Origin: a virus
Lineage: Duplodnaviria > Heunggongvirae > Uroviricota > Caudoviricetes
Length of the DNA stretch: 4,653 nt
Direction: 5' to 3' (one strand)
IMG/VR virus record: IMGVR_UViG_2568526749_000005
Shown here: positions 1 to 4,653 of the stretch, one piece after another
How positions within the stretch are numbered: the first letter of the stretch is position 1
How the letters are laid out: each line of letters opens with the position of its first letter
Notes under the pieces: model-generated
The model's database searches: none
What the model was told of the DNA's origin: nothing
The model's input: the letters and a program-made list of their open reading frames with translations, nothing else
Made by a program: the position numbers and the translations under genes

Positions 1-62
1 GTTGTTCTGAGGTGAGCATATCACCTCTGTTCAGGTGGCCAAATTCAGTAAACCACTTCAAA
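1..62. repeat. Left copy of perfect 62-bp terminal inverted repeat (IR-L)
   Basis: Positions 1-62 are the exact reverse complement of 4591-4652, checked base by base; identity breaks at 63/4590. Contains an internal 7-bp stem palindrome GAGGTGA (9-15) / TCACCTC (21-27) with a 5-nt loop. Confidence 0.95.
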
Positions 63-87
63 CTTAAATGGTCAGCAGCTTTATGGA

Positions 88-336
88 TTGTTAGTTGGTG
101 GTGGCATCATAAACGCAGCAGTATTAGCGGGGATGCTAAAAACGGCTGCGTTTGTTGTTCCTGCTGCTGGTGTCGTAGGAGGAGCTGCGAAGGCATACGA
201 AAGCCCTGTTATACGAAATGCCTTGTTACGTCTGGCAAATACGCCAAAAGGTAGCACAGCATATGACAGAGCGATCAGTACGGTCACACAATCGCTCACC
301 AGAGTCGCACAGGCATCACAAAAAGAAGCTCAATAA
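88..336 (+). CDS. ORF remnant, unknown product; Gly/Ala-rich hydrophobic segment then hydrophilic tail. Probably the 3' end of a longer gene
   Basis: Frame 1 is open from 52 (just after TAA at 49-51 inside IR-L) to the stop at 334-336. No convincing start: TTG at 88 has no SD, and ATG at 133 has GGG directly abutting it. The other two overlapping ORFs (12-254 plus, 81-299 minus) look less protein-like. Confidence 0.3.
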   Translation: MLVGGGIINAAVLAGMLKTAAFVVPAAGVVGGAAKAYESPVIRNALLRLANTPKGSTAYDRAISTVTQSLTRVAQASQKEAQ

Positions 337-353
337 CTGGCAGCCACGGATGG

Positions 354-704
354 CTAATTTTTATTCTTTGATCTCGTCCACAGGTAAAGAAGAGCAATGG
401 CAAGACAGGAAACAGAGAATAGATAACCTACCTCATATGGTGCGCCAAAAAAATTAGCTATTGATACGGGCAAAAAAGCCGAAGCGATCAGAATTGAAAG
501 GCAAAAAATAAGCCCAGTAACATAGTTTATTAAACTCTTAAATGAGAAACGTTTTGCTTGATTTACGGTCTCAGCGAGTGATCGCTTAACGATGGATAAA
601 AGCAAATAGATGGCGACAGTAGCTAATGCCCCTTTCCACCAGTCTGGATATAGTTTTGCGACAATCAGCCCAAGGAAAACCATGATGACAGACTGAGCAT
701 TCAC
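354..704 (-). CDS. Small integral membrane protein (about 116 aa, 3-4 predicted TM helices); possible superinfection-exclusion-type protein
   Basis: ORF with GTG start at 702-704 preceded on the minus strand by AAGGAGG (complement of 711-717) at 6-nt spacing. The sequence is strongly hydrophobic. It is divergent from the 880-1904 operon. No family recognised. Confidence 0.5.
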   Translation of the reverse strand: MNAQSVIMVFLGLIVAKLYPDWWKGALATVAIYLLLSIVKRSLAETVNQAKRFSFKSLINYVTGLIFCLSILIASAFLPVSIANFFGAPYEVGYLFSVSCLAIALLYLWTRSKNKN

Positions 705-783
705 ACCAACCTCCTTAGTTTTGCGCAGGATACCAGATGATGTATAGGAGTGGGAGTAAAGTTAGTCGGTGATAGAACGGTGG

Positions 784-812
784 TTGCATAATGATATCAC
801 GTGACGTAAACT
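784..812 (+). promoter_or_regulatory. Putative sigma70 promoter for the 880-1904 operon
   Basis: -35 TTGCAT (784-789), 17-bp spacer, -10 TAAACT (807-812). The spacer holds a perfect 8-bp palindrome TCACGTGA (797-804). The GCATAG motif recurs downstream. Confidence 0.3.
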
Positions 813-879
813 TATTGCGCATAGCGTGTATTCAATGGATGCATAGCTATTGATAATCTCCGATAAGAAGGAGGTTTGT

Positions 880-1446
880 ATGAGCAATGAGACTAATGGG
901 ATTGATGAAATGTTTAGCTTGAACGCTGCCAAAGCTGGAGTCGCAATAGGTTTGCTATTACAGCAAGCTTCTGCGTTCAGTTGTGAGGTGGTTGTTACTG
1001 ATAACGTTCAGCACGCTTACCATCAATCCTCATTCAGCAGTGAACGGGCTAATGATGAGCTTCATGAGGCGGTGTCTTCGATTAAAGAATTGTCTCGAAT
1101 GCTGAAATACGCTTATCGTGTTCTTGCAAACGCTACCGATGAGAATGTAGACAATGTGTTGTCTATCATTGAACCAGAAAAGTCTCGATTGATAGAGCAT
1201 CAATTGAGAGGACTTGAAGGGGCAATGAAATCGGTATTCAAAGAAGCTTCTGCTGATTTTAAAGAGATCGCAAGAGATATCTATATCGTTGTTGCTGATG
1301 CCAGATCTGCCGTAACCAACCTGAATAGTCTTATTAAACAACGCTCATGTGTTCCGGTTGTTTTTGATAGTTCCGTAGATATGGCTGGTTTGCGTGCGCT
1401 TGCTGAGCACGGGACTCGTGTGTTTCACTCTGGTAACTTCCACTGA
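880..1446 (+). CDS. Hypothetical protein (188 aa), predicted mostly helical; no family recognised; upstream partner of the YafO-like gene
   Basis: ATG at 880 preceded by AGGAGG (869-874) at 5-nt spacing. The stop TGA (1444-1446) overlaps the SD of the downstream gene. Confidence 0.7.
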   Translation: MSNETNGIDEMFSLNAAKAGVAIGLLLQQASAFSCEVVVTDNVQHAYHQSSFSSERANDELHEAVSSIKELSRMLKYAYRVLANATDENVDNVLSIIEPEKSRLIEHQLRGLEGAMKSVFKEASADFKEIARDIYIVVADARSAVTNLNSLIKQRSCVPVVFDSSVDMAGLRALAEHGTRVFHSGNFH

Positions 1447-1454
1447 GGTAAAAC

Positions 1455-1904
1455 ATGCAAGTAACCGTGGAATATAATCAGGATAGTTTTGACTATTTTT
1501 TCTCCCCGGTTTTTGTTGAGTTTCCTGATTTAAAACAAACACTTGTAGATGATTTTATCATCTACAAGTCTACGGGAACGTTGCCCAGCTATTTTGGCAG
1601 AGACACCTCTTATCATCGACCTCCTGATATTGAAGATGCAGGCCTTATGCACCTTCATTTAGCAATTGGTGAAAATAAATTTGAGCCAATAAAAAATGGC
1701 ACAGATATCAGCACACCGCAAAAGTTGCAGTGGCATAAAACATCCAATACCGCTCTCGTTTATGCACAAAATCTTTTTGATGAGAACAGGTATTCATTGA
1801 TTGCTCTTTTTCATCCTGTAGCTCACATGTCTGCTAACAATCATAATAGAATGAGAGTGTTAGCAGGGTATGCGAGAGACTTTAGAAACACTATGTTTGA
1901 CTAA
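1455..1904 (+). CDS. YafO-family toxin-like protein (ribosome-dependent mRNA interferase family), 149 aa
   Basis: ATG at 1455 with GAGG (1445-1448) 6 nt upstream. Resembles my recollection of E. coli YafO in several blocks (DFIxYK..G.LP..FGRD.SY, H.HLA, LVYxQ..FDE, LIA, NN..M). Followed by an intrinsic terminator. Confidence 0.6.
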   Translation: MQVTVEYNQDSFDYFFSPVFVEFPDLKQTLVDDFIIYKSTGTLPSYFGRDTSYHRPPDIEDAGLMHLHLAIGENKFEPIKNGTDISTPQKLQWHKTSNTALVYAQNLFDENRYSLIALFHPVAHMSANNHNRMRVLAGYARDFRNTMFD

Positions 1905-1927
1905 ACCCACCGTCAGGTGGGTTTTTT
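1905..1927 (+). terminator. Rho-independent terminator after the YafO-like gene
   Basis: Stem ACCCACC (1905-1911) / GGTGGGT (1916-1922), loop GTCA, then a T-run through 1927. It lies between convergent genes (1455-1904 plus, 1953-2489 minus). Confidence 0.7.
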
Positions 1928-1952
1928 ATAAGGAGTAATCATGATTTACCCA

Positions 1953-2489
1953 TCAAACAACCCACCAGTTTGCCTGATTGGATGCCAGCCTTGCAGTTTT
2001 TATGGAATTAATTATGCCATGCTCAAGAGCCTTGTTAGCATCCAAAATGGTCGAGTCTGCTATCAGGGATGCCCACCTAATATGGGTTCCGATGTCGATA
2101 TTGAACGTCTCAACGAAGCGATCAAGATCGTTATCGAGGCATTTCCCGTACTCTCTCAATCTGGCATGGTCGGCGGCTGGGGAGGCAAAGCACCATAATA
2201 GAGGATGTAACAGGAATCTTGATAATGGGTTTGCGAAACGTTCTGAGCCAGCCAGGAAAACGATATTAGCTATGGATTCAACATTGCTTATGTTGTGAGT
2301 TCTAACGGTAACAGGGAGTGACTTAAGAAAGTTATACGCAGTAAAGCCAGCAGCAGTTTCCCCTCCCTGACTTGATATATGGATATTTAATTCAGTTGCG
2401 CCTTGAGATAATGCGGTGAGACAGTGGTTCTGAAGTTGCCCAACAGTGGCAGTGTTAACAGGGCATAAGAAATGAATTGTGTGCAGCAT
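1953..2489 (-). CDS. ClpP-fold (S14-like) serine protease homolog, 178 aa
   Basis: Aligns to the ClpP core as I recall it: IHISSQGGETAAGFTAYNFL vs [20 protein letters not shown], a Ser in NVESIAN aligned to catalytic Ser in GQAASMG, LLHP vs MIHQP, and C-terminal EHGIINSI vs EYGLVDSI. Its ATG (2487-2489) overlaps the mnt stop (2489-2491) as TAATG. Confidence 0.7.
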   Translation of the reverse strand: MLHTIHFLCPVNTATVGQLQNHCLTALSQGATELNIHISSQGGETAAGFTAYNFLKSLPVTVRTHNISNVESIANIVFLAGSERFANPLSRFLLHPLLWCFASPAADHARLREYGKCLDNDLDRFVETFNIDIGTHIRWASLIADSTILDANKALEHGIINSIKTARLASNQANWWVV

Positions 2490-2737
2490 TATTTTTCATC
2501 CTTAGCATACATGGTCTTTAGCGTCTCAAGTAGCGCCTCTTTGAATTTATCAGCTTCTTGCTGAGCAAATGACTCAACTGACTTTGGCGACCTATCTTCA
2601 TCAATCGCGGCTTGCAAAATCATGACGATCTCGGAGTTAACAGAGCGACCATTTTTTGATGCTCTGACAGCAAGAGCCTCGCGTAAAGATTCAGGGATTC
2701 TTACCGTAGTTGGAGAAATTGACACACCCTTTGCCAT
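2489..2737 (-). CDS. mnt: Mnt-like ribbon-helix-helix repressor (82 aa)
   Basis: ATG at 2735-2737 with AAGGTG SD on the minus strand. Similar to P22 Mnt (RIPESLREALAVRASKNGRSVNSEIVMILQAAI vs FRMPMEVREKLKFRAEANGRSMNSELLQIVQDAL). Divergent from arc. The ORF track extends to 2779, but that N-terminal extension has no homology. Confidence 0.75.
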   Translation of the reverse strand: MAKGVSISPTTVRIPESLREALAVRASKNGRSVNSEIVMILQAAIDEDRSPKSVESFAQQEADKFKEALLETLKTMYAKDEK

Positions 2738-2851
2738 ATAACACCTTTGGTATTCAATTTGATAGCAAAGTGTATGCAAAAAAATTTTGACTAGATATAC
2801 TCACTTTGCTATCTTTTGTATTCGAAAAGAGTTGTTTGCGTGGAGGGTAAC
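2738..2851. promoter_or_regulatory. Divergent mnt / arc-ant promoter-operator region
   Basis: Perfect 12-bp inverted-repeat arms GATAGCAAAGTG (2761-2772) and CACTTTGCTATC (2802-2813), 29 bp apart. Candidate Pant: -35 TTGACT (2787-2792), 17-bp spacer, -10 TATCTT (2810-2815), overlapped by the right arm. A TTGCAT -35 candidate for Pmnt sits on the minus strand (complement of 2774-2779). Confidence 0.55.
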
Positions 2852-3004
2852 ATGGAGAAAGAAATAAGTAAGATTTTGGTAAGGATGCCGCAGTCGTTAA
2901 AGGATGCTATCGGTAGCAGGGCAAAGGAAGAGTGCAGGTCGTTTAACTCAGAGGTTATCAAGCGCCTGATAGACAGCCTGAAGAGAGAGGGGGTAACGGT
3001 GTGA
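2852..3004 (+). CDS. arc: Arc-like ribbon-helix-helix repressor (50 aa)
   Basis: ATG at 2852 with GGAGGG SD (2842-2847). Similar to P22 Arc (VRMPQSLKDAIGSRAKEECRSFNSEVIKRLIDSLKREG vs LRWPREVLDLVRKVAEENGRSVNSEIYQRVMESFKKEG). Confidence 0.75.
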   Translation: MEKEISKILVRMPQSLKDAIGSRAKEECRSFNSEVIKRLIDSLKREGVTV

Positions 3005-3174
3005 TTCGCTTGGATGCAGTAGTCAAAGAGATTGCGATTACCATTTTAAGACCAAATTTTGTTCATGGCGAATCATTTGGCACGAACGAAAAATTGAGAA
3101 GAGAAAGAGTATTCAGTGGCAAGCGCACGTTTTCAGAAGTGATGCTTGATGCGGCAAAGAAATCAAAACAGTGA
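3001..3174 (+). CDS. Possible small ORF (57 codons) translationally coupled to arc; speculative
   Basis: GTG at 3001-3003 overlaps the arc stop (GTGTGA), with GAGGGGG (2987-2993) 7 nt upstream. Open frame to TGA at 3172-3174. No homology recognised. It overlaps the predicted sar-like terminator, so it may be non-coding. Confidence 0.15.
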
Positions 3175-3236
3175 AGCCCCAACTGCTGGAACAGTCAGGG
3201 CTTCGGTTGTCGGTAAATCCGTGGAGAAAAACCAAC
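3157..3236 (-). ncRNA. sar: Predicted sar-like antisense small RNA covering the ant ribosome-binding site
   Basis: Minus strand has an extended -10 TGcTATACT (complement of 3243-3251) placing the start near 3236. A minus-strand-specific hairpin follows (complement of 3173-3204, 13-bp stem with two G-U pairs, 6-nt loop), then the U-rich tail ACUGUUUUGAUUUCUUU (complement of 3156-3172). This matches the known P22 sar arrangement (about 69 nt, antisense to the ant start). Confidence 0.35.
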
Positions 3237-4139
3237 ATGAATAGTATAGCAATTTTAGAAGCAGTGAACACCTCTTACGTGCCATTCAACGGTCAGCAAA
3301 TTATCACCGCCATGGCTGCCGGAGTTGCATATGTTGCGATGAAGCCAATCGTTGAAAACCTCGGAATGAGCTGGTCAACGCAGCAAACAAAACTCATGAA
3401 GCAGATTAGCAAATTCAACTGTGTTCATATGAACATGGTTGCCGCTGATGGTAAGCTTCGTAAGCTACTCTGCCTTCCTTTGAAGAAGTTAAATGGATGG
3501 CTGTTCAGCATCAACCCTGAGAAAGTTCGTGCTGACATCCGCGATAAACTGATTCAGTACCAGGAAGAATGCTTTACTGTGCTGCATGACTACTGGACAA
3601 AGGGAGAGGCAGCAAATGCACGGAAGAAAACATCTGTTGATGACAGGACTCCGCTTCGTGATGCTGTAAATATGCTAGTCAGCAAAAAGCATCTAATGTA
3701 CCCAGAAGCTTATGCAATGATTCATCAGCGTTTCAATGTGGAAAGTATTGAAGAGCTTGATGCATCTCAGATACCACAAGCAGTAGAGTACATCCACAGG
3801 GTAGTGCTTGAAGGTGAGTTCATCGGCAAACAAGAGAAGAAAACCAACGAGCTTTCTGCAAAAGAAGCAAACAGCCTTGTATGGCTATGGGATTATGCCA
3901 ACCGCTCACAGGCATTATTCCGCGAACTGTATCCGGCGCTAAAACAAATTCAATCGAACTATTCCGGCAGATGTCATGACTGCGGTTATGAGTTCTCCCG
4001 TATTATCGATATGGCGAGAGACGTTTTAATCAATCACACACGAGATGTTGATATCAATGAGCCAGACGGACCAACGAATCTTTCCGCATGGATGAGACTT
4101 AAGAATAAAGAATTACCTCCTTCAGTACATAATTACTGA
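3237..4139 (+). CDS. ant: Ant-like antirepressor (300 aa)
   Basis: ATG at 3237 with GGAGA SD. The N-terminus [26 protein letters not shown] matches my recollection of P22 Ant. Position after arc is as in P22 immI. The ORF-track start at 3171 is a GTG upstream extension. Confidence 0.85.
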
Positions 4140-4157
4140 CAGATAACCAACGCAACG

Positions 4158-4181
4158 ACCCAGCTTCGGCTGGGTTTTTTT
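4158..4181 (+). terminator. Rho-independent terminator after ant
   Basis: Stem ACCCAGC (4158-4164) / GCTGGGT (4169-4175), loop TTCG, then a T-run to 4181. Confidence 0.7.
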
Positions 4182-4239
4182 ATGCCCAAAATTCACCGTG
4201 GCCATGCTGCGGCGATTCTTTGCATCTGGAGCAAATTAA

Positions 4240-4608
4240 ATGACAGACATTACAGCCAATGTGATTGTATCGATGCCTTCGCAACTCTTCACTATGGCGC
4301 GTTCTTTTAAAGCCGTAGCCAATGGCAAAATTTATATCGGTAAAATTGACACTGACCCGGTAAATCCTGAAAACCGGATTCAGGTTTATGTAGAGAACGA
4401 AGACGGCTCTCACGTTCCTGTTTCGCAACCAATCATCATTAACGCTGCTGGTTACCCTGTATATAACGGACGGATTGCCAAGTTCGTAACTGTGCAAGGC
4501 CATTCTATGGCTGTGTACGATGCGTATGGCGTACAGCAGTTCTATTTCCAGAATGTGCTGAAGTATGATCCTGATCAACTACGGCAGCAATTTGAAGTGG
4601 TTTACTGA
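4240..4608 (+). CDS. P22-type tailspike N-terminal head-binding domain only (122 aa); truncated relative to a full tailspike
   Basis: [43 protein letters not shown]...[15 protein letters not shown]...NVLKYDPDQ closely matches the P22 gp9 N-terminus. GGAG SD at 4228-4231. Similarity ends at DPDQ; the last codons FEVVY and the TGA stop (4606-4608) lie inside IR-R. Confidence 0.85.
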
Positions 4609-4653
4609 ATTTGGCCACCTGAACAGAGGTGATATGCTCACCTCAGAACAACA
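4591..4653. repeat. Right copy of the terminal inverted repeat (IR-R)
   Basis: 4591-4652 is the reverse complement of 1-62. Position 4653 (A) would pair with a T one base before the window start, so the full repeat may be 63 bp or more with 5'-TG...CA-3' ends. Same internal palindrome at 4626-4632 / 4638-4644. Confidence 0.95.

Follow-up and report, generated by a model that had tools for sequence, protein, structure and literature searches.

Insertion of ISEc52 into the tailspike gene of a degraded CUS-3-like prophage of Escherichia coli

Results

The window, by which we mean the whole stretch of 4,653 nt analysed here, comprises 4,532 bp located between two inverted copies of the mobile element ISEc52, both of which lie outside the window apart from their tips. 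Between these tips we found the 3′ part of a P22-type ejection gene, an immI-type region and the 5′ part of a tailspike gene:

1..60, minus strand: IRL end of the left ISEc52 copy, in reverse complement; what remains of this 1,250-bp IS is located beyond the left edge of the window
61..336, plus strand: P22 gp16-family DNA ejection (injection) gene, 3′ fragment, cut by the left IS
354..4139, both strands: immI-type region, assigned from Pfam, PHROG and the annotation that RefSeq gives to the identical DNA of S88 and PE144
4157..4180, plus strand: intrinsic terminator after ant, with a GC-rich stem of 8 bp and a T run behind it, directly upstream of the tailspike ORF
4240..4592, plus strand: tailspike gene, native 5′ portion comprising codons 1-117 and 2 nt of codon 118; encodes the head-binding domain and a stretch of the linker
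4590..4592, no strand: ATT, left copy of the 3-bp target-site duplication of the right ISEc52 insertion
4593..4653, plus strand: right ISEc52 tip (IRL end, forward); the full copy is at 10354-11603 of contig L003

The immI-type region encodes a 116-aa hypothetical protein (minus strand), a 188-aa protein of unknown function, a YafO-family toxin, a ClpP-like protein (minus strand), a Mnt-like Arc-family repressor (minus strand), Arc, a 57-aa ORF and Ant. The gene 16 fragment in front of it covers positions 576-667 of the 668 positions of the PHROG profile for DNA transfer proteins and is named "injection protein, missing N-terminus" in RefSeq.

The tailspike ORF (4240-4608) codes for 122 aa, of which 117 are native residues and the remaining five, FEVVY, are translated from the IS. 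Its product matches the Pfam family PF09008 (Head_binding) over positions 1-113 of 113 with E = 7e-66 and 220 bits at a cut-off of 24, and it aligns with the solved N-termini of the Sf6 and P22 tailspikes through residue 114-115, at the motif KYDPDQ. In these structure matches (Sf6 7SG7, E = 1e-66; P22 2VKY, 2XC1 and 1LKT, about 1e-50) residues 1-114 are covered end to end. The original prediction, made from the letters of the window, of a P22 gp9-type head-binding domain reaching to KYDPDQ is therefore confirmed, together with its placement of the last five codons (118-122) and the TGA stop (4606-4608) inside the right-hand repeat. The likeness to P22 gp9 and Sf6 gp14 (PF09008; 1LKT, 2XC1, 7SG7) is that of residues 1-114; unlike these proteins, the ORF has no receptor-binding body. 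Whereas a functional P22-like tailspike carries the head-binding domain in frame with a catalytic body, the reading frame stops here within the IS.

The position of the break can be given to the base. The window core (61-4592) matches the genomes of S88 and PE144 exactly, and residues 1-117 are identical to the 981-aa tailspike of S88, in which residues 114-117 (LRQQ) belong to the native CUS-3-type linker. The break follows nt 4592, which is the second base of codon 118, and the right ISEc52 tip supplies the last base of this codon, codons 119-122 (EVVY) and the TGA. The cut is located four codons past the protein similarity to P22 and Sf6 and 2-21 nt past the end of the DNA similarity to other P22-like tailspike genes (4571-4590). 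In Sf6, the linker comprises residues 107-123 (PMC9728967), and the ISEc52 cut falls within it. Thus, the claim that the gene was cut exactly at the boundary between head-binding and receptor-binding parts holds as far as nearness to this boundary is concerned, but the real break is found four codons further downstream, as LRQQ is native linker. The "boundary sequence" bsq1 of CUS-3 was also considered as breakpoint and was dismissed, as it is located upstream of the tailspike start and not at the domain boundary.

Both ends of the window are formed by a perfect inverted repeat with arms of 62 nt (1-62 and 4591-4652, 100% complementary), which is the left-end (IRL) tip of two identical 1,250-bp ISEc52 copies in inverted orientation. 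Sixty of the 62 bases stem from the mobile element, and the remaining two (aa at 61-62, tt at 4591-4592) pair by chance, so that the true IS boundaries in the window are 60/61 and 4592/4593. Boundaries at 56/57 and 4597/4598, which would follow from the megablast match of native DNA at 57..4597, were rejected because BLAST overran the junctions: the native targets mimic the IS tip over 4-5 nt, with native TTAGAAG against TGAAG of the IS on the right (4593-4597) and native TTCAAAAC against TTCA/AAC on the left (57-60). IS911-like elements have a tendency to insert beside sequences that resemble their own ends.

The complete ISEc52 element is 1,250 bp long with the ends TGAAGTGG...CCACTTCA and carries the imperfect terminal inverted repeats of the IS3 type, 5′-TG...CA-3′ (TGAAGTGGTTTACTG... 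and ...GTTGACCACTTCA), of which the first 9 nt are perfect while similarity extends over about 36 nt. Its orfA codes for an HTH_Tnp_1 protein of 100 aa and orfB, in the -1 frame, for a protein with rve/rve_3 domains; a slippery A6G site (AAAAAAG) is found at IS position 324 near the end of orfA. An identical 1,250-bp IS is present at 4572-5821 of contig L003, 6811-8060 of L001 and 4811-6060 of L008, the left and right copies in L003 are identical to each other, and RefSeq names the sequence left of window position 61 in SF-088 and PE144 "IS3-like element ISEc52 family transposase". A query with the first 110 bases of the window had matches in 4,732 of the 5,426 complete E. coli genomes, with a median of 2 and a maximum of 24 places per genome, some of which are ends of related IS elements at lower identity. 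In these genomes the repeat matches are multi-copy, occur on chromosomes and plasmids and lie inside many unrelated genes, a distribution typical of a mobile element. A target duplication of 3-4 bp, as is usual for the IS3 family, is seen as ATT at the right copy in L003 and as CGT at the tailspike copy of SF-088. With its length, TG...CA ends, A6G -1 frameshift, 3-bp duplication and multi-copy occurrence, the present case resembles other pseudogenes generated by ISEc52, and nothing of substance differs from known ISEc52 insertions. A group II intron or an element of the IS200/IS605 type had been considered on account of the hairpin GAGGTGAGCATATCACCTC, an apparent TTCAAA "target" and the location in other IS or plasmid genes; both were dropped since the full element reads as a 1,250-bp IS3-type IS with target duplication.

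The length of the terminal repeat follows the k-mer size of the assembler minus one. It amounts to 62 nt in the window and to 140 nt in the ENA metagenome contig k141_603 (locus L004), a MEGAHIT contig assembled with k = 141 which contains the window as an exact substring and in which the 140 nt consist of 138/139 nt of IS plus the two chance bases. A de Bruijn assembler run with k = 63 would keep 62 nt of a 1,250-bp repeat and then break the contig. The repeat hence does not bound an element, and the ends of the window reflect assembler breaks within ISEc52. These very properties, a window ending inside a repeat of length k-1, could also speak for an assembly artefact or a sequencing error, in which case the tailspike of the source would be intact and stop and repeat would mark a chimeric contig end. 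However, junction and 122-aa ORF recur unchanged in independent NCBI, ENA and Logan assemblies, and in nine collection blocks contigs of more than 1 Mb cross the whole IS and continue into the remainder of the gene, with a clean duplication of ATT. An artefact, including the sequencing error at the stop codon that the original prediction had named as its refuting case, is thus extremely improbable.

All context beyond the window was taken from other assemblies with the identical 122-aa ORF, not from the source sample, the closest being the superstring contig L004. An exact look-up of the 122-aa product returned 33 contigs in 61 collection blocks, metagenomes included, and nine of these blocks hold contigs of more than 1 Mb. 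In the 5,426 complete RefSeq genomes of E. coli searched, the insertion in tailspike codon 118 is absent, whereas it is present in other public assemblies. The 4.9-Mb chromosome contig L003 (GCA_964037715.1) shows the order dsdC, torI, ISEc52 (minus strand), 3′ fragment of gene 16, immI-type genes and ant, followed by the 122-aa ORF, ISEc52 (plus strand, 10354-11603), a 737-aa ORF, intS and a chromosomal gene, which is yfdC in RefSeq (SF-088, S88), where a tRNA-Arg lies between intS and yfdC. A single SNP (2810, T/C) distinguishes the window from L003. It falls on the first base of a -10-like hexamer, TATCTT, which belongs to a promoter-like site at 2787-2815; this site is flanked by the divergent mnt-like and arc genes and corresponds in position to P_ant.

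The 737-aa ORF beyond the right ISEc52 copy contains End_beta_propel, End_beta_barrel, End_tail_spike and Peptidase_S74 domains and represents the endosialidase part of the tailspike, so that the receptor-binding module indeed lies beyond the repeat, as had been proposed. In L003, ATT is found on either side of the right copy (...GCAGCAATT-IS-ATTAGAAGACCC, native sequence GCAGCAATTAGAAGACCC), which has therefore arisen by simple transposition into codon 118. The endosialidase part is not translatable from the IS because a TGA is located in its frame 9 nt inside the right end of the IS and the first in-frame start follows about 127 codons downstream. A rearrangement that joins the two halves of the tailspike, which had been the other option for the module beyond the repeat, does not agree with these data: what follows the repeat is the 1,250-bp ISEc52 and ATT, and the TGA blocks any read-through.

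At the left junction, the IS is flanked by CATAG and AAC (CATAG-IS-AAC) with no target duplication. Gene 16 is complete in S88 (2,013 bp). The remnant lacks the 5′ 1.7 kb of this gene and all that preceded it in the prophage. Since the flanks differ and the 5′ part of gene 16 is gone, the left junction is the end of a deletion and not a fresh insertion. The uninterrupted prophage region exists in S88, APEC O1 and about 40 other complete genomes; its native tailspike has 981 aa and shares 99% DNA identity with siaK1 of CUS-3 over all 2,946 nt. PE144 combines this left IS junction with an intact 981-aa tailspike, and we infer from this sister allele that the deletion preceded the insertion into the tailspike gene.

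The identical inverted IS copies bracketing cargo genes might also suggest a composite transposon, in which the 4.5-kb core would have moved as a unit with both ISEc52 copies and carried the genes of Ant, the YafO toxin and the ClpP-like protein. Such a transposon would be expected to show an outer duplication and to occur at more than one locus. In contrast, the outer flanks, CATAG and ATT, form no duplication, the core aligns colinearly with the S88 prophage, which is uninterrupted and occupies the identical position in the chromosome, and every context we found was the argW locus, which leaves the composite transposon a chance close to nil.

Discussion

Taken together, the window is almost certainly unique DNA between inverted identical ISEc52 copies in a degraded CUS-3-like (P22-like, K1-specific) prophage at the argW tRNA-Arg gene of E. 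coli, the tailspike gene of which is split by the IS. As a first step, an ISEc52-associated deletion would have removed the DNA from just inside torI to the 3′ end of gene 16, which would leave a left junction without duplication. In one sublineage, a second copy of ISEc52 would then have entered the linker at codon 118 of the tailspike gene and produced the ATT duplication. Translation from the native start is predicted to run 16 nt into the left end of the IS and to stop there after 122 aa, with the endosialidase part 1,250 bp further downstream. To the right, the sequence would accordingly pass through the 1,250-bp ISEc52 into ATT and AGAAGACCCAGATGG, and to the left it would pass through ISEc52 into torI. 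The idea of a repeat-bearing element that inserted into the gene and left a 122-aa ORF is hence correct with respect to the insertion, but the window itself is not this element, as it lies between two external ISEc52 copies.

The remnant shares with CUS-3 the P22-type head-binding domain fused to an endosialidase and the arrangement with ant upstream of the tailspike gene, followed by the neuO region, int and the att site (CUS-3 record). Unlike CUS-3, it is a remnant only, its tailspike is split by the IS and the accessory genes in the immI region are different.

A 4.5-kb segment flanked by a perfect inverted repeat could also be the invertible segment of a programmed, shufflon-like switch that joins alternative receptor-binding modules to the head-binding domain, and a RecA-dependent inversion between 1,250-bp inverted copies is physically possible; short reads cannot place the orientation of the core. 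However, the repeats are ordinary IS ends, one of them with a target duplication. Programmed inversions of the Hin/Gin/Cin type or shufflons have a recombinase beside their sites, but neither an invertase nor a resolvase was found in the window ORFs scanned or in the L003 flanks, where the recombination enzymes are IS transposases and IntS. Furthermore, an inversion would place the head-binding ORF beside torI and away from the endosialidase, and the TGA inside the right end of the IS would bar a fusion. We therefore regard such a switch as extremely unlikely.

The cut in the tailspike gene lies close to the known module-exchange point of this protein family. The remnant has been hit by IS elements repeatedly across lineages (L001 13225-14474; proteins P0014 and P0006; ant): SF-088 carries ISEc52 at tailspike codon ~329 with a CGT duplication, in another lineage the tailspike is cut at codon ~145 by a different element, and in AH21I008 and relatives ISEc52 resides within ant. 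Because the same gene was also hit at codons ~145 and ~329, we attribute the nearness of the codon-118 insertion to the module boundary, without a formal test, to chance and see it as one of several scattered insertions. The repeated hits could be due to ISEc52 hopping locally, to neutral decay or to counter-selection of the endosialidase gene in K1-capsulated hosts.

The original prediction further held that the stand-alone domain could compete for tailspike-binding sites. Spelled out, the fragment would be expressed at a low level, e.g. by read-through from P_ant, and its trimers, co-opted as a dominant-negative decoy, would fill the tail-hub tailspike sites of superinfecting P22-like coliphages and lower the infectious yield; if true, a decaying prophage would act as a weak superinfection defence. 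In support of this, the ORF retains the native start and a complete PF09008 domain, the allele is distributed over the contigs and metagenomes mentioned above, and in the cryo-EM structure of Sf6 the tail-hub contacts are formed by residues 1-123 alone (PMC9728967). On the other hand, the terminator (4157-4176) lies directly upstream of the ORF and no promoter-like site is present at 4140-4240. In P22, gene 9 is part of late transcription, which is antiterminated by gp23, and Mnt and Arc act as repressors of P_ant. By comparison with P22, the region lost upstream of the gene 16 fragment included the late promoter and the gp23 antiterminator, and the remnant has kept the genes of the Mnt-like and Arc repressors. 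Owing to this combination of a terminator, no promoter-like site, lost late control elements and retained repressors, the 122-aa fragment is probably a pseudogene product that has little or no expression or is non-functional. The spread of the allele fits clonal inheritance, as the DNA is identical or differs by one SNP, and sister lineages carry differently placed, evidently random truncations. Our data lend no support to a competitor for tailspike sites, and we consider the decoy very unlikely.

In its biological content, the locus combines a known IS (ISEc52) with a known prophage gene (the CUS-3-type endosialidase tailspike) and adds another case of IS-driven prophage decay in extra-intestinal pathogenic E. 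coli of K1 lineages, which by itself is of little biological weight. Nevertheless, the codon-118 insertion could be used as a lineage marker. For genome scans, the window calls for caution, since a short contig whose ends are perfect inverted repeats of length k-1 points to unique DNA between inverted copies of a longer repeat and not to an element bounded by repeats.

Besides the tailspike, the accessory genes show some features of their own. At 880-1904, the gene of the 188-aa protein (phrog_8416, no Pfam match) ends 8 nt before the gene of the 149-aa YafO-family toxin, and no recognisable YafN-type antitoxin is present; the 188-aa protein, an immI accessory gene product, may be a non-canonical partner of the toxin. 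A search of the accessory ORFs with PADLOC matched no known defence system. On the minus strand (1953-2737), the Mnt-like repressor gene runs into the gene of the ClpP-like protein (178 aa, PF00574), the end of the former and the start of the latter overlapping at 2489, so that the two look like one operon; a stand-alone gene with Clp-protease fold that is coupled to an immI repressor is unusual. The 3′ end of the ClpP-like ORF is overlapped in antisense by an 85-aa ORF (1941-2198, plus strand) with a strong AAGGAG ribosome-binding site and a full-length match to phrog_7758 (E = 1e-61), and it is unlikely that both of these overlapping readings are real there. A hairpin similar to the terminator at 4157-4180 is also located at 1905-1927.

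Downstream of the tailspike gene lies the neuO O-acetyltransferase region (L003 14199-15397; L007 9105-9237), which contains a phase-variable AAGACTC heptanucleotide repeat, present in 19 copies in CUS-3, and depending on the genome neuO is called as a full gene, as a short gene or not as a gene.
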